Part shown: positions 16,581-54,565 of the stretch, piece by piece | Numbering within the stretch: position 1 is the first letter of the stretch | Layout of the letters: each line of letters opens with the position of its first letter | Assembly: GCA_963842885.1 (NCBI GenBank) | Contig: CAWJIE010000004.1 | Coordinates: 128,001-192,000, forward strand | Direction: 5' to 3' | Source of the DNA: an uncultured Nitrososphaerota archaeon | Lineage (GTDB): Archaea; Thermoproteota; Nitrososphaeria; Conexivisphaerales; DTJL01 | DNA length: 64,000 bases | Program-made: the position numbers and the translations under genes | Notes under the pieces: model-generated | Told to the model about the DNA's origin: nothing | Seen by the model: only the letters and a program-made list of their open reading frames with translations | Database searches by the model: none

Positions 16581-19302
16581 TCACTGTTTGTTTGCTTCTT
16601 TGATGAGGCGAGTTATAAGGTCTCTCAGGGGCTGAGTAGTGGAGGGTATCTCGCCACCTCCCTGGGCCATCTTCGCCGAGCCGCCGCCGGAGCCGCCCAA
16701 GAGCTTGGAGGACTCCTTCACCAGCGTCGAGGCGTCCACGCCGGAAGCCCGGGCCTTCTCGCCGGCGAAGATGATGATCCGGCACCTCCCGTTGAGCCTG
16801 GCCACCCCTACGTAGACGACCTCAGGCCTCTTCTCGACGATCTGCTCTCCCATGGCGATGTGCGCCTGGTCATCGTAATAGTCCGCGTCCAGGAAGAGGA
16901 GCCTGATTCCTCCGATGTCCTCGGACAGATGGGCGATGTTGGCGGCCATCTGGGCGGAGAGCTCCTTCGAGATGCTCTTGTACCTCTTCTTGAGCTGGTC
17001 GTTTCCCTCCCTAAGCGAGCCCACAACGGAGACGATCTGCTCGGGCTGCGTCTGGAACTGCTCGGCGACGCCAAGGACCCTGGATTCCTGCTCCGCCATG
17101 TACTTCACGGCCGGCCCTCCGGCCACGAATTCGAGGCGCTCGACGCCGTCCTGCAGCCTCTCAGCCTTGAGAAGTTTGATGTAGCCCACGTCGCCCGTCC
17201 TGCTGCAGTGGGTCCCTCCGCACGCTTCGACGTCGAAGTCTCCTATCTTCTGAACACGAAGGTCCTTCGCTGGGATCACCCCTCCCTGGTAGAGCCTGAA
17301 GCCATACTTCTGCTCCGCCACGCTGCGTGGCAGGACCTGCAGGTCCACCAGGATGTTCTCGCGGACGACCTGGTTGGCGACTTCTTCGATCTTGAGCATC
17401 TCCTCTCGGGTGAGGTGGCTATGGTGGGTAATGTCAAGCCTTGCCTTGTCGATGTCCTTGTAGGCGGAATGCTGCCAGACCCATGGGCCGAGGACCTGCC
17501 GGGCGGCCCCGTTCACGATGTGTGTGGCGGTGTGGTGGCGCATCAGGATGCCCCTCCTCACCTGGTCGACCCTTCCGTGAACCATCTCGCCTTCTGCCGG
17601 GGCCTTCCCCTCGAGGACGTGGACGATGACGTCGCCGTATTTGATAACGTCGACAACCGGTATCCCGTCGATGGTGCCGAGGTCAGGCTCCTGCCCTCCC
17701 GATCGCGGGTAGAACGCCGTCTGGTCCAGCACGATGGCGTCGTCCCTCAAAGGCCCGGAGGACCTTTGCGTCGAAGTCGAAGAGTGACCTCTCTTCGTAG
17801 AAGAGGGGCCTGGTCCTGGGCAACCCTGTAGTGTCATAGAGGGGCTTCTCCTCCGCCTGCTTCTGGACGATGTGCCTCTCCGTGACCTTCATGTAGAAGT
17901 CGGAGGGGACCGTTATGGAGAGGCCGTTCTCCTTAAGGAGCTCGGGCGTGACCCCCTCGCTGTCGTAGAGGCGGATGAGATCTTCCAGCGACGGCGATTT
18001 CTTTGACTTCTGCAGCTGCTGAACAATGGAGGCGACGCGGGCCTTGCTGGCATCGTACCTCCTCTCTTCGACGCCGAATATCTGTTCCACTGAGCCGATG
18101 CCCTCGGCCAACTCCGGATACATGGGCTTCAAGAACTCGGCATGAAGCGAAGCCAGCTCCGCCAGCGTTATGTCCCAGCCGTACTCTTCGATGAAGTTCT
18201 GGGCCCTTCGGAACAGGACCCGGAGGTTGTACCCGCCGGCCACGTTGCTGGGGAGCGCTCCGTCGACTATGGCGAATAGCAGTGTCCTGCTGTGGTCCAA
18301 GAGCGAGAAGGCCGCCTCCAGTGGAGCGATCTGCGCTTCAAGTCCCTCGCCCGTAAGGCCCAGCTTCCTAGCGACGGCCTCCTTGGCGGCGATGGGGTTC
18401 TGCACCTCGGTGATGTCCAATGAGCCAGCGAGGGAATAGTACTCCGTCAATAGCTTCTGGTCTGGGCGTAGCCCCAGCCGCTTGATGAGATGGTCGTAGA
18501 CTGGGCCGAATACGGCTTCGTAGCTGGTGGGCGTCCCCCGGGTCATCCAGGTGAAACGATTCAGGCCCGCGCCCATGTCGACTATGGGGTGGGGCATCGT
18601 GACGTAGCTCTCGGGCGAGCCTTCGAATTCGGTGAAAACGGCGTTCCCGATTTCAAGGCCTCTCACGTAGTATTCCAGAGAATAGCCGAAGGCCCCATAG
18701 CCCAGCCAGACGTCCTCTACGAAGGTTATCTCCTTCTTGGGGACGCCGAAGGGTCCCGTGAGAAGCCCGTAGTCCAGCTCGATGGTCTTGTCCTTCCAGT
18801 ATCCCTGGGCGTTGTTCACGGCGTGCTGGCCCACCATGCAGAAGGAGGTGTAGTGGCGCCCGGTCACGCCCACATTCTCGATGTCGTTGAACCTCAGGCA
18901 CATCTGGGGGACGACGAGAGGGTTGGCGGGGAAGTCAAAGATTATCTTTCCGTTCTCGACCCTCTGGAAGTCGATTATGGAGGCGACTGTGAAGTAGAGG
19001 TCGGGCCTCCAGCGGGCCACGACGGGATACCTCTTCACGCTTGTGTGGCCACGATCGACGAAGTACTTCTCGATGGAAGCCCAGGCGGTGGTGTAGTCCT
19101 TTCTGACGCTAGTGGGCGGCCTGCCTATGAAAGTGTACCCTTCGCATTCGGGGCACAGAGAGGCGTCGCTGGCCGTCCAGATGAACTTGCCACAGTTGGT
19201 GCATTGTCTGCGAACGAAGCCCTCCTGGCCGAACAGGGCGACCTTGTAGTACCGGGCGTAGTCCTCGGAGAACTTGCGGCGGAGCACGTCCTTGGATGCC
19301 AA
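16581..19302 (-). CDS. alaS: Alanine--tRNA ligase (archaeal type); frameshift ~17745
   Basis: RYPVVARWR, CLRFNDIENVG.TGRH, editing HHTATH and CGGTH, C-terminal GGSGGG. Confidence 0.97.
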
Positions 19303-19376
19303 TGAGACGCTGAACTCCTGTTACGGGAGGCATGTGGAAGATGTGTTTTTAAAAGGTTTGATGAATCGGGACTAGA

Positions 19377-19540
19377 AACCGGGCCTCTCCCTGTTTGCAC
19401 AGGTTCTCGCGAACCGAAGGTGAGGAGCGTTGGCTGGCCGCCGCAGGCAGTCAAGACTTATTACTGCGGGAGGGGGATGTTCGGCTCTGGCGGGTGGTGG
19501 GGCCTCCCACCGTTCCGCTGAAGAAATCCCGGTTGGGAGG
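19377..19540 (+). promoter_or_regulatory. Highly structured 5' leader with anti-SD; riboswitch candidate
   Basis: TATA TTTTTAAAA at 19346-19354; six nested helices and an alternative CCTCCCA/TGGGAGG pairing over the SD. Confidence 0.5.
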
Positions 19541-19544
19541 AGAA

Positions 19545-20066
19545 TTGAGTGTGGACACTAAGATAGCGATGGGGGAACTCAGCAAGAGTCGTGCGGAGCT
19601 GCTGGCGCAGACCGCGCTTATTGCTGCCGTCTATGGCATTGGGACCTACGCGATCGCGCCGATCGCCTACGGCCCCATTCAGGTGCGCATTACGGACGCA
19701 TTGCTGCCAATCTCATGGAATAGAAGGGTAGGCTTTGCTGGAGTGCTGGGGGTGACATTGGGAGTGGTGATATCCAACCTCATATCGCCGTATGGATTGC
19801 CCGACATAGTCATCGGGACCGCCGCCAATCTCTTCGTGGGCCTCATTGCCTACTTGCTGGGGAGGTGGCAGTCCAAGGGTTCCCTGGTCGTGGCCGCCCT
19901 CCAGGCGAGCGTGATAGTGGCGTTTTTCATAGGCGTCCTGTTGATGGCTTTGGTTTATTCCTCCAACCCTATCACAAGTTTCGCCACAATGTTGGTGGGC
20001 GAACTGGTGGCCTGCGTGGGATTGGGGGTGCCCGTCATGCTGGCTATCAAGACCCGCTATCGTTGA
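19545..20066 (+). CDS. queT: QueT-family transporter (7-deazaguanine precursor S-component-like)
   Basis: ALIAAVY...APIAYGPIQVRITDAL, GVTLGVVISNLISPYGLPDIVIGT, VGEL; start TTG 19545 or GTG 19551 after GGGAGG. Confidence 0.88.
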   Translation: MSVDTKIAMGELSKSRAELLAQTALIAAVYGIGTYAIAPIAYGPIQVRITDALLPISWNRRVGFAGVLGVTLGVVISNLISPYGLPDIVIGTAANLFVGLIAYLLGRWQSKGSLVVAALQASVIVAFFIGVLLMALVYSSNPITSFATMLVGELVACVGLGVPVMLAIKTRYR

Positions 20067-20165: not shown

Positions 20166-21452
20166 TCAGCTCGCGGACCTGAAGAAGTCTTCAAGCCTCG
20201 TCTGGTGAAGGAAGTGCGGGATGAGCCGAGATGCTTCGACCCATCTCTGGATAGGTATCGAGAGTTCAGCGGAGGCCAGACGAAGCGCTTGGCCGAGGTC
20301 GTCCGCCTCGGTGGGAGGCCGCCGCAGGGCTTTGCGCGCGATTTCGCGGAACCGCCAGACGCCCAGGGGAATCCATTCGGGATGCACCTCCATGAGAACC
20401 AGCGCGCCGGCCTGTCTCCTTGTGCTCGCGAGGTATTCCAAGACCGGCAGCCTTGCCGCATGATATGCTCCCGCCAGATTGGTTGGGTAGGTCTTCCTTC
20501 CCGACGTCAGCTCGTAGTCAGAGTACACCTTCGAGTCGGCCGTCAGCCAACCCTCAAGGCCTTCGAACATCCAAGGGGATGGCAGGAGCACCACGCACAC
20601 GGTATTCCCCAAGGCCCTGTGGCTGAAGAAGCTGTAACCGCTGACCTCCGCGAAGTCAAGGACCTTGTCGATGAGCCCCCTTCCGAGGATGTCATCGACG
20701 GCCGTAATGCTCCATTCCGTCGGGACCAGCCTCCTGTGCTTCTTGACGCCGAGCAGGCCTATGCTGAGCAGCTTCGTGATCTGGCTCTGCCTCACGCCCC
20801 CAAAGAAGAGGTCCGGGATGGCTTCGGCCGCCCTGAAATCGGTGTCTCCTACCACCTTCTCCACCCTTAGCGAGACGGAGGGGTTCTCGGCCACTCTGAC
20901 GCTGACGAGCGGCGCTGAAGGCCCGTTGGGGGGGCTCCTCGAATTGAACACCTCGCTGAGGACCGGCCTCTTCCCCAAGACGGCCTCCACATCGGTGGGC
21001 TTCGAGGCCATGATGATCTCCTGGGTTGCAGAGAGGATGCGGGAGGGGTCGACGGCCTCCCCGACGTCCATTGTGTACTTGCCTCTCACGAGGCTCAGGC
21101 GGTAACGCAGAATCTCATCAAATCCCTTGTCCACCCATCTCTCCGGCATGTCCATCAGCGTGGTGTCCTCGTGCGGGAGAGGGGGGACAAGGGGACCAGC
21201 CAGCACCTTGGGATAGCCATGCTCTCCTACGAAGACCGAAGGTGGCGACGCGCCGAAGACCCTGTCGATGTTCTCGAGGCGGGCCGCCGATCTGAAGGCC
21301 TTGAGCTTGGCAATGTAGGGACATCGTTCTTCTCGACACAGGGAGGAGAACCCATGGCAGACCGGGCATCTTGCCTCCCTGCGCCGCTCCCCCCTCTGCA
21401 CCTCTACGAAACGAAGCTGTCTCATGTTATCCCCAGTAACGGACCCTGCCAC
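20166..21452 (-). CDS. nreA: Nre-family DNA repair protein
   Basis: N-terminal C4 finger, SPPSVFVG..GYPKV, LVPTEWSITAVD, C-terminal PIP box QTRLEDFF. Confidence 0.93.
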   Translation of the reverse strand: MAGSVTGDNMRQLRFVEVQRGERRREARCPVCHGFSSLCREERCPYIAKLKAFRSAARLENIDRVFGASPPSVFVGEHGYPKVLAGPLVPPLPHEDTTLMDMPERWVDKGFDEILRYRLSLVRGKYTMDVGEAVDPSRILSATQEIIMASKPTDVEAVLGKRPVLSEVFNSRSPPNGPSAPLVSVRVAENPSVSLRVEKVVGDTDFRAAEAIPDLFFGGVRQSQITKLLSIGLLGVKKHRRLVPTEWSITAVDDILGRGLIDKVLDFAEVSGYSFFSHRALGNTVCVVLLPSPWMFEGLEGWLTADSKVYSDYELTSGRKTYPTNLAGAYHAARLPVLEYLASTRRQAGALVLMEVHPEWIPLGVWRFREIARKALRRPPTEADDLGQALRLASAELSIPIQRWVEASRLIPHFLHQTRLEDFFRSAS

Positions 21453-21465
21453 AGACGAACGGCGT

Positions 21466-22458
21466 CTAGGAAAGCAGTCTGATTACGGCCTTCTTAACCT
21501 TCTCTTTGTACTGTTCCAGCTCTAGCGCCGACATCTTCCCCCTTTCCGTAGGGAAGCCAGCCGCAAAGTCGTGACCTCCCCCACCGAAAAGCTCTGCGAT
21601 CTTCCTGCAGCTGACATCCTCCACGGTCCTCCTGACACTTCCTTCGCCTGAGTCGCTGAGGCCTATGGAGACGTCGGCCTTGAATTGATCCAGCACGATC
21701 AGCGAGGCCTGCGTCCCCGAGAAGATGGCGGGGAACCGGAATAGGACGACGGAGTGCTTGCCGGCCTGGAAGACTTCGGAATCGGCCAGAATCTTCTTCC
21801 TCTCCTTCGTCTTCAGTGCCTCATACTCCTCGATGAAACCGTTCTGATAGGGCTCCACGATTCCGTCTTCGTCCGCTTCGATCCGTGGGAAGGCCAGCTG
21901 TAGGACTATTTGGAGGAGCCTCGGGGCGATTATCGTGCGCTTGTCCAAGTAGTTGGAGTAGTCTATCATGGCCATCAGCTTGGAGGTGACGCCGTATTTC
22001 AGCTCGAGGAGGTCCGAATCGCGTCCGAGCTTGGAGAGCAGGAGGGCGTGAGCGTCGTCGAGCCCGTTTCGGACGAACAGGTTCTGGTAGGTGATTTCCG
22101 ACGCCACAGTGGAGCTGGCACGGAGGTCGAGGAAGTCCACGACGCCCGAAAGGGAAGACCTGATCGCCTCGGTGGAAGGGTGGTGGTCGAACCACGATAT
22201 TTCATTGTTCCAAGACTTCAACGTCCGGAATTTCTCGAGTATGGGTTCGAGGTTGGGGAGATTGGTCGAAAGGTCGGTTATGAGGAACTTGCTATTCTGA
22301 AGCTCCAGGAACTTCTCCTCGACGACGGGGTCTTCGTCGGTGTAGTCTTTGAGCGAGATGACGTACGGCTGACGCTTGTGCTTGGCGACGAACCGAAGAG
22401 ACAGCGCGGCCGACGCAAGGCCGTCCAGGTCCTTCCGATGCGAAATGATGACGTACAT
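21466..22458 (-). CDS. DHH/DHHA1 phosphoesterase
   Basis: DLDG, ITDL, FDHH, GGGGH..AAG. Confidence 0.9.
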   Translation of the reverse strand: MYVIISHRKDLDGLASAALSLRFVAKHKRQPYVISLKDYTDEDPVVEEKFLELQNSKFLITDLSTNLPNLEPILEKFRTLKSWNNEISWFDHHPSTEAIRSSLSGVVDFLDLRASSTVASEITYQNLFVRNGLDDAHALLLSKLGRDSDLLELKYGVTSKLMAMIDYSNYLDKRTIIAPRLLQIVLQLAFPRIEADEDGIVEPYQNGFIEEYEALKTKERKKILADSEVFQAGKHSVVLFRFPAIFSGTQASLIVLDQFKADVSIGLSDSGEGSVRRTVEDVSCRKIAELFGGGGHDFAAGFPTERGKMSALELEQYKEKVKKAVIRLLS

Positions 22459-34529: not shown

Positions 34530-34643
34530 GGGCCTGTAGCTCAGCCAGGTAGAGATTGACCTCGCCTAGAGCGGCTGGCTCTTACGGCACCGATCGGTGC
34601 TGGGGAAACCAGTAGGTCGGGGGTCCGAATCCCTCCAGGCCCG
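34530..34643 (+). tRNA. tRNA-Lys(CTT) with two introns (22/23 at 34553-34569; 37/38 at 34585-34607)
   Basis: GGGCCTG/CAGGCCC acceptor, GCTGG-CT-CTT-A..A-CCAGT, BHB motifs at both junctions; TATA CTTAAATA upstream. Confidence 0.95.
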
Positions 34644-54467: not shown

Positions 54468-54565
54468 GGGCCCGTAGCTCAGCCAGGTAGAGCGCCGGGC
54501 TTTTATGGCCGACCGCGGTCAAAGCGACCCGGGTGTCTCGGGTCCGATTCCCGACGGGCCCGCCA
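54468..54565 (+). tRNA. tRNA-Lys(TTT) with canonical intron 54506-54526, CCA encoded
   Basis: GGGCCCG/CGGGCCC, CCGGG-CT-TTT-A..A-CCCGG, T-arm TCGGG-TCCGATT-CCCGA. Confidence 0.95.

Follow-up and report, generated by a model that had tools for sequence, protein, structure and literature searches.

A compact covarying element in the leaders of archaeal queT genes, a candidate for a new archaeal riboswitch class

The queT leader and its conserved element

The DNA analysed here, a 64,000-nt stretch of contig CAWJIE010000004.1 (positions 128,001 to 192,000) from an uncultured Nitrososphaerota archaeon and hereafter called the window, carries a queT gene on its forward strand. Just ahead of this gene lies a conserved 54-nt element (19489-19542), in which two helices, P1 and P2, separated by an internal loop, are followed by an A-rich tail, a CCCGG block and the Shine-Dalgarno (SD) sequence. 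The queT identity proposed for the gene in an initial annotation, made from the sequence by eye, is borne out by a match to the Pfam family QueT (PF06177, E 1.6e-26). Its probable start is the GTG at 19551, which is favoured over an in-frame TTG at 19545 because it lines up with the queT starts of same-genus relatives. QueT provides the substrate-binding component of a transporter whose predicted cargo is queuosine precursors, and QueC and QueE make preQ0, which archaea insert into tRNA on the way to archaeosine (PMC5372724). The element is argued below to be a probable translational riboswitch, and its parts are as follows; counts refer to a set of 181 distinct copies, or to 69 copies that were all found or confirmed by a covariance model.

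19489..19493, + strand: 5' strand of P1 (G-GCGG), pairs with 19515-19519
19494..19495, + strand: 5' side of the internal loop (GU), GT in 181/181 copies
19496..19501, + strand: 5' strand of P2 (GGUGGG), SD-like and a rival of the SD for the anti-SD, pairs with 19506-19511
19502..19505, + strand: loop of P2 (GCCU)
19503..19509, + strand: anti-SD (CCUCCCA), three loop bases plus four bases of the P2 3' strand, a perfect 7-bp complement of 19534-19540
19506..19511, + strand: 3' strand of P2 (CCCACC)
19512..19514, + strand: 3' side of the internal loop (GUU), GTT in 177/181 copies, GTGCT in 3, GAT in 1
19515..19519, + strand: 3' strand of P1 (CCGC-U), pairs with 19489-19493
19520..19527, + strand: A-rich linker ending in AAA-U, 8-14 nt long among the 69 copies
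19528..19532, + strand: invariant block CCCGG, present in 67/69 copies
19534..19540, + strand: SD region (UGGGAGG), 3' strand of the pseudoknot and complement of the anti-SD
19551..20066, + strand: queT coding sequence, its probable GTG start 10 nt past GGAGG

Because the anti-SD overlaps the 3' strand of P2, the P2 hairpin and the anti-SD:SD pseudoknot are mutually exclusive, and in the window the two are of similar predicted strength (-10.1 kcal/mol for the hairpin, -15.4 kcal/mol for the duplex). The edges of the conserved element are marked by an unrelated 4271-nt contig of another organism, recovered from a DNA sequencing run, whose resemblance to the window is confined to 19490-19543.

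These boundaries are far narrower than those first drawn. The initial annotation had described a 165-nt leader folded as one structured domain, closed by a helix AACCGGG/CCCGGTT and containing several further helices (H1-H5 in all) together with a CCGCAG/CTGCGG pseudoknot. All of the complementary strings that it listed do occur at the coordinates it gave, and in the window (G000) the helices pair at 7/7, 8/8, 3/3, 5/5 and 7/7 positions and the pseudoknot at 6/6. Folding of the whole leader (19370-19555) does not, however, bear out a single domain: its minimum free energy is -76.5 kcal/mol against a shuffle mean of -72.4 kcal/mol (z = -0.88), 37 of 200 dinucleotide-shuffled sequences fold as well, and the supposed closing helix is not used in the minimum free energy fold. 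Alignment of four relatives from the genus to the window shows that most of the helices H1-H5, and likewise the CCGCAG/CTGCGG pseudoknot, are disrupted there, with pairs kept in G002, G004, G003 and G001, respectively, at 3/8, 2/8, 8/8 and 3/8 positions of H2, at 3/7, 4/7, 6/7 and 2/7 of H5, and at 4/6, 3/6, 2/6 and 2/6 of the pseudoknot. The exceptions are H2, intact in G003 with different letters, and the 3-bp hairpin H3, intact (3/3) in G001. RNAalifold, applied to the same-genus set, retains only the P1/P2 hairpin at 19489-19519 (covariation term +0.52), and the 110 nt upstream of the conserved block vary even among genomes of the genus.

Two components of the original description, the hairpin GCGG..GGTGGG-GCCT-CCCACC..CCGC (19490-19518) and the complementarity between CCTCCCA (19503-09) and TGGGAGG (19534-40), turn out to be conserved far beyond chance, and the mutually exclusive folds that they define are general. 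The proposal of a new translational riboswitch class before archaeal queT thus survives in kind, given the lack of an Rfam match, the covariation and the gene link, but in neither architecture nor boundaries: the element spans about 54 nt, not a 165-nt multi-helix domain.

Spread, covariation and gene context

Copies of the element were collected along several routes. A QueT protein search of 61 related genomes gave a match in 19, and the sequences ahead of these genes have no more in common than the ~55 nt that precede the start codon; this block is nearly identical in four other genomes of the same genus and can clearly be recognised in AT-rich genomes belonging to a second family of the class. 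A loose DNA pattern run over genome contigs returned 119 stretches, 18 of which hold the full motif, and all 18 are archaeal metagenome-assembled genomes, namely of Bathyarchaeia (including Ca. Bathyarchaeum tardum), one Methanomethylicota and one Promethearchaeota. The other 101 stretches, which lack the 5' half of the motif and come mostly from bacterial records, were set aside as chance. A stricter pattern applied to metagenome contigs added at least 120 stretches, four of which (L229, L252, L270 and L280) were judged by eye to be false, having neither P2, pseudoknot nor promoter box. Removal of duplicates left the set of 181 distinct copies.

A covariance model (R1), built from 29 copies, finds one strong match in the window's genome (72.4 bits) and one strong copy apiece in five other carriers, these being the six genomes searched whole; five weak matches in the window's genome (E 0.03-0.73) were taken as chance without inspection. 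Genomes were sampled with R1 in the window's class, in its phylum and in one Asgard phylum, that of the Promethearchaeota copy, 151 in each case. Matches came from 15 of those in the class, 28 in the phylum and 13 in the Asgard phylum, which places the motif in roughly 9-19% of genomes sampled across two phyla. Within the class its presence is markedly uneven: 5 of 8 genomes of the window's family carry it and 9 of 10 of another, but none of the 81 genomes of the largest family does.

P1, P2 and the anti-SD:SD pseudoknot are conserved and covary. In the model alignment of 58 distinct sequences, 91.4% of cells pair compared with 82.2% in shuffles, a value that none of 500 shuffles reaches, and a shift of the partner by 1-3 columns lowers pairing to 42-68%. 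The closing pair of P1 is kept in 57 of these 58 sequences while its identity varies (GC 32, AU 9, UA 6, CG 5, GU 3, UG 2, other 1), and in 175 of the 181 distinct copies, again with six pair types (GC, AU, UA, CG, GU and UG). The 181 copies were anchored on the junctions, since a MAFFT alignment (A2) displaces P2 by one column between subtypes. Positions 3-6 of P2 pair in 147-170 of 161-181 sequences, with GC, UA, AU, CG and GU among the types, and compensatory variants include GGCGG/CCGCC, GGUGA/UCACC, GCGG/CCGU, GGGU/ACCC and, in Asgard copies, GGAGG/CCUCC.

At least five contiguous anti-SD:SD base pairs can form in 180 of 181 copies, in 73 sequence versions, and the 28 copies that lack the CUCC core stay complementary through changes on both strands (for example UUCCGAC/GUCGGAA, ACAUCUC/GAGAUGU, CCUUCC/GGAAGG, UGUCUC/GAGACA and CCCAUCC/GGGUGGG). 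When SD strands are permuted among the 181 copies, the mean duplex energy is -13.35 kcal/mol (sd 0.14) against an observed -14.65 kcal/mol, and none of 5000 permutations is as good; among the 69 copies, one of 5000 is.

Unpaired parts of the element are likewise conserved. The GU of the internal loop is also invariant among the 69 covariance-model copies, about 16 of which came from the genome-contig pattern, which was narrower and left those letters free, and the AAA of the linker is kept in 68 of the 69, the exception being L203 with ACA. Two copies, L196 and L197, have CCCC-AAAA in place of CCCGG, and in both this variant coincides with a nearly absent P2. L202, with a P2 of 2 bp, and similarly L196 and L197, resemble plain H-type pseudoknots. 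Three Asgard copies (L207-L209) have GUGCU instead of GUU, together with the pseudoknot pairings GCACC/GGUGC or CCUCG/CGAGG. Judged from their sequences, the L196/L197 and L207-L209 variants could have altered specificity.

The two C residues that precede GUU are conserved irrespective of the opposite P2 bases, and once the pseudoknot forms, these last two C of the P2 3' strand may find partners in the GG of CCCGG. Such CC:GG pairing is compatible with every copy but L196 and L197, which lack the GG, and as the bases are invariant it is mute in covariation. Two other roles for the tail were considered and rejected: a CCC-GGUU-GGG mini-hairpin, which RNAalifold suggests within the genus, is impossible in copies with a GGAGG SD, and a helix between the tail CCC and the opening two bases of P2 is not supported, since those bases vary (GA, GG, AG, AA) over an unchanged tail.

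Gene association ties the element to the archaeosine pathway. A Pfam QueT open reading frame (ORF) comes next after the motif at 52 of 59 genome loci, and at 15 of the 59 a queC follows the first ORF on the motif strand. At two further loci, L168 (in a genome of the window's family) and L120, the motif directly precedes a radical-SAM ORF whose five best NCBIfam matches are all QueE models (E values down to 7.9e-26 and 1.5e-20, respectively, below the equivalog cut-offs). The other five of the 59 were left unscored owing to contig ends, frameshifts or an omitted ORF, and their readable translations are QueT-like. Among 107 first ORFs on metagenome contigs, 103 are QueT, one is a radical-SAM protein (L224) and three belong to no family, two of the three following false motif matches. 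Across the ~170 scored loci, no family other than queT, queC or queE-like genes was found directly after the motif, and no purine-metabolism context was seen.

A few loci are unusual in the relation of motif to gene. In G001, of the window's genus (L014/L020/L023), queT is broken by TAG, TGA and frame changes while the leader motif is intact at 67 bits, with a P1 closing pair that is the sole A-G mismatch in the genome set. In G039, a short truncated queT-like ORF stands after one motif (L012/L022), ahead of two full tandem queT paralogues, and a second copy (L021/L170) precedes a third queT. In L008-L011, all from one genus of family f8, an ORF of seven codons with its stop follows the SD ~10-35 nt past the motif, and queT starts ~25 nt further on in a different frame. 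The short ORF may encode a leader peptide or be what is left of a decayed N-terminus, and the arrangement implies coupling or re-initiation.

Promoter and neighbouring genes

Upstream of the element, two promoter-like boxes lie between queT and the divergent gene for alanyl-tRNA synthetase (AlaRS).

17683..19302, - strand: N-terminal part of AlaRS, divergent from queT (Pfam tRNA-synt_2c, E 8.6e-69)
19346..19354, no strand assigned: distal TATA-like box TTTTTAAAA, kept within the genus, ~23 nt from the 20-nt SD-containing AlaRS leader
19456..19463, + strand: proximal box ACTTATTA resembling a B recognition element (BRE) plus TATA, putative queT promoter, corresponding to an A/T-rich block upstream of P1 across loci

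The proximal box has counterparts at many loci. An A/T-rich block stands 28-36 nt ahead of the first P1 base at 59 loci, with an A/T fraction of 0.75-0.88, often reads TTTAATA or TTTATAA and is often preceded by AAAG. At metagenome loci, an A/T-rich 7-mer occupies the promoter position in 111 of 114 cases, whereas a control window closer to the motif has one in 49 of 114. BRE/TATA promoters in archaea are usually spaced in this way. With such a block ~30 nt upstream, the motif probably begins the mRNA, and the queT transcript likely starts at about 19483-19489, 0-8 nt before P1; from this promoter spacing we infer the leader position of the structured domain.

The distal TATA, from which the initial annotation had started its leader, is present as described, but it is better placed for the divergent AlaRS gene than for queT. 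The AlaRS ORF on the minus strand (17683-19302) has a 20-nt leader that includes an SD, and on its AlaRS side the distal box has a flank similar to the A-rich one found upstream of the proximal promoters. The box at 19346 thus probably serves AlaRS, and it could also give a longer queT transcript. In the spacer between the two boxes (19355-19455), a few short islands such as GAAAAC and GTTTGCA are kept within the genus, with no supported structure.

The AlaRS gene (16581-19302, minus strand) is split over two overlapping ORFs in different frames, 17683-19302 and 16581-17837. Elsewhere in the window's genome, which encodes both queC and a TGT-family enzyme (ArcTGT), the queC reading frame falls into three pieces and that of the TGT gene into two. 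These fragments may reflect an assembly with many indel errors, or the genes may be broken. Directly beyond queT, on the opposite strand, lies an archaeal gene of the Nre family (Nre_N and Nre_C, 20166-21452), and next to it a gene weakly resembling DHH/DHHA1 phosphoesterases (21466-22458, minus strand). Two tRNA matches on the plus strand, at 34530-34643 and 54468-54562, measure 114 and 95 nt against a 71-position model and probably contain introns.

Likeness to known RNAs and the proposed switch

A scan of the window against Rfam 15, a check that the initial annotation had called for, gave no family at gathering score. At E values up to 10, the window copy, L202 and L036 drew only chance matches to microRNAs, long non-coding RNAs and thermometers, and the models of the three preQ1 classes, preQ1-I (RF00522), preQ1-II (RF01054) and preQ1-III (RF02680), gave no match to these three copies even at that threshold.

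By description, two of these classes nonetheless come close. In preQ1-II, the COG4708/queT RNA motif, the SD is hidden in a pseudoknot with a hairpin loop and the RNA acts as a translational OFF switch. This class is functionally the closest, as it too lies before queT, and the present element shares with it both this position and the SD held in a pseudoknot. It differs in conserved sequence, in its archaeal hosts as opposed to Streptococcaceae and relatives, and in its likely ligand, preQ0 instead of preQ1. The topology is closest to that of preQ1-I, a small H-type pseudoknot in which a 5-bp P1 and a short 5' loop are followed by an A-rich linker and by a second helix that takes up the SD. 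Here, too, P1 covaries, as does the anti-SD:SD helix, and the A-rich linker is conserved; the minimal copy L202 has the same topology. The archaeal element is, however, ~20 nt larger, contains an inserted P2 hairpin that competes with the pseudoknot, and has the invariant GU, GUU and CCCGG that are absent from preQ1-I. Control of queT genes by preQ1 riboswitches is itself on record for some cases, as stated in the YhhQ paper with reference to Meyer 2008 (PMC5372724).

Among archaeal RNAs, a possible precedent is sRk28 of Thermococcales, a conserved 70/100-nt RNA that has a hairpin and for which a pseudoknot has been proposed. It adjoins a queC-like gene in Pyrococcus abyssi and was likened by its discoverers to preQ1 riboswitches (Phok et al. 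2011, PMC3124441). It is expressed and regulated by growth phase (PMC3124441; Jager et al. 2014, PMC4247193), and for Thermococcus kodakarensis, where it is also expressed, it has been termed an orphan small RNA (Jager et al. 2014, PMC4247193). The sections of PMC3124441 and PMC4247193 that deal with sRk28 describe neither a link to queT nor a spread to other archaeal phyla. Likened by description only, sRk28 may be related to the present motif.

Riboswitch classes reported from archaea are the fluoride and TPP classes (McCown et al. 2017, PMC5473149). Both are common to bacteria and archaea, whereas the full motif described here was archaeal in each of its 18 genome-contig copies. As of 2014, direct evidence for riboswitch control in archaea was said to be still lacking (PMC4247193). 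Full-text literature searches found no description of the present motif, and the main text of preprint 10.64898/2026.10.21.760802 does not mention queT, preQ or queuosine.

The element has the general traits of a riboswitch: a covarying structured domain, a link to genes of one pathway and a coupled expression platform. An RNA that precedes only queT, queC and queE-like genes and that can hide the SD is most readily interpreted as a means for the pathway product to exert feedback control. The element at 19489-19542 is therefore read, with somewhat better than even confidence and from comparative evidence, as probably a translational OFF riboswitch of an uncatalogued class found so far only in archaea, with a 7-deazaguanine ligand for which preQ0 is the best candidate.

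In the mechanism proposed, the pyrimidine strand CCUCCCACC would be contested by two folds. In the ON fold, predicted to prevail when ligand is absent, the SD-like 5' strand of P2 would hold CCUCCCACC and leave the SD free. In the OFF fold, CCUCCCACC would bind UGGGAGG, in a helix probably extended by the GG of CCCGG, to give an H-type pseudoknot that hides the SD. A ligand seated among the invariant unpaired bases (GU, GUU, AAA and CCC) would lock the pseudoknot, and the locked form would shut down translation of queT in the window and of queT-queC or queE elsewhere.

Several considerations weigh against this proposal. The support for it is drawn wholly from comparative sequence analysis, from which ligand binding, ligand identity and the direction of control are all inferred. 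The copies are kin, and the shuffle and permutation counts consequently overstate significance and independence. GU, GUU, AAA, CCCGG and the inner four pairs of P1 are mostly invariant and so are mute on pairing, and in 114 metagenome copies GCGGGT, GTTCCGC and AAA-N-CCCGG were fixed by the search pattern, so that the invariance of these blocks counts for the other 69 copies alone. Many relatives have queT genes without the motif (L005, L006, L007, L016 and L017), and no clear queE was found in the window's own genome. In preQ1-I, a conserved C just before the 3' strand of P1 pairs with the ligand; the base at this position is here the U of GUU in 177 of 181 copies, which leaves a guanine-like ligand with no obvious Watson-Crick partner in the model. 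Finally, a 199-nt contig from a metatranscriptome run spans 19408-19606 with 20 differences (<90% identity); it is indistinguishable from DNA carry-over, and if it is RNA, a relative's transcript begins upstream of the predicted start. Sequencing runs were seen as contigs, whose uncovered parts are uninformative.

Four other explanations were weighed. The element might be read by a macromolecule, with an RNA-binding regulator, ArcTGT (acting on the leader or titrated by it) or unmodified tRNA stabilising one of the folds. An SD-masking platform linked to the archaeosine pathway would suit such a reader, ArcTGT is encoded in the window's genome, and a precedent of sorts exists in that bacterial TGT acts on an mRNA and action of ArcTGT on non-tRNA RNAs has been suggested (PMC4770233, discussion). 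Yet the ~20 unpaired bases that stay invariant over two phyla in a 55-nt RNA are typical of a small-molecule pocket, no regulator gene accompanies the motif in the inspected loci, and the element is too small for T-box-like tRNA reading, which together make a macromolecular reader unlikely. That the same riboswitch architecture responds to a ligand other than a 7-deazaguanine, be it another purine or a general signal, is quite improbable: the 7-deazaguanine is deduced from gene context alone and the model offers no obvious ligand-pairing C, but every scored downstream gene is queT, queC or queE-like, with no locus pointing to purine metabolism. It is more doubtful still that the element works independently of any ligand, as a constitutive SD mask, an RNA thermometer or a stabilising 5' structure. 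Although the competing folds are close in predicted energy and the helices alone would suffice for such a role, neither a thermometer nor a stabiliser needs the invariant unpaired bases, and the same sequence recurs in peat archaea, AT-rich genomes and Asgard genomes, tied to one pathway. The long multi-helix aptamer starting ~23 nt past the TATA at 19346 and closed by AACCGGG/CCCGGTT is scarcely credible and already largely refuted. In its favour, its strings are complementary in the window's genome, H2 in G003 and H3 in G001 hold, and the relative's metatranscriptome contig covers part of it. Against it, the fold does not stand out from shuffles, the helices are otherwise broken in G001-G004, RNAalifold retains P1/P2 alone, and outside the family, as in other phyla, the copies lack any upstream sequence of this kind and have a promoter box directly before P1.

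As a candidate for a new archaeal riboswitch class the element is strong and easy to test, since experiments on so short an RNA, with a ligand candidate (preQ0) that is open to synthesis, are simple. A bolder version, to which we give about an even chance, is that it would represent the first riboswitch class confined to archaea, present in the window's phylum (Bathyarchaeia and Methanomethylicota among the named matches) and in an Asgard phylum, sensing preQ0 and controlling SD-dependent translation by a strand exchange in which hairpin P2 is invaded by the SD together with the tail's palindromic CCGG, with sRk28 as a euryarchaeal member that would make the class pan-archaeal. If the proposal is true, it would add a fourth architecture for the sensing of 7-deazaguanines and provide a small natural switch for archaeal genetics. 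It would also offer a testable case of metabolite-controlled translation initiation on archaeal ribosomes and show how archaea balance salvage of preQ0 (queT) against its synthesis (queC, queE) for archaeosine.

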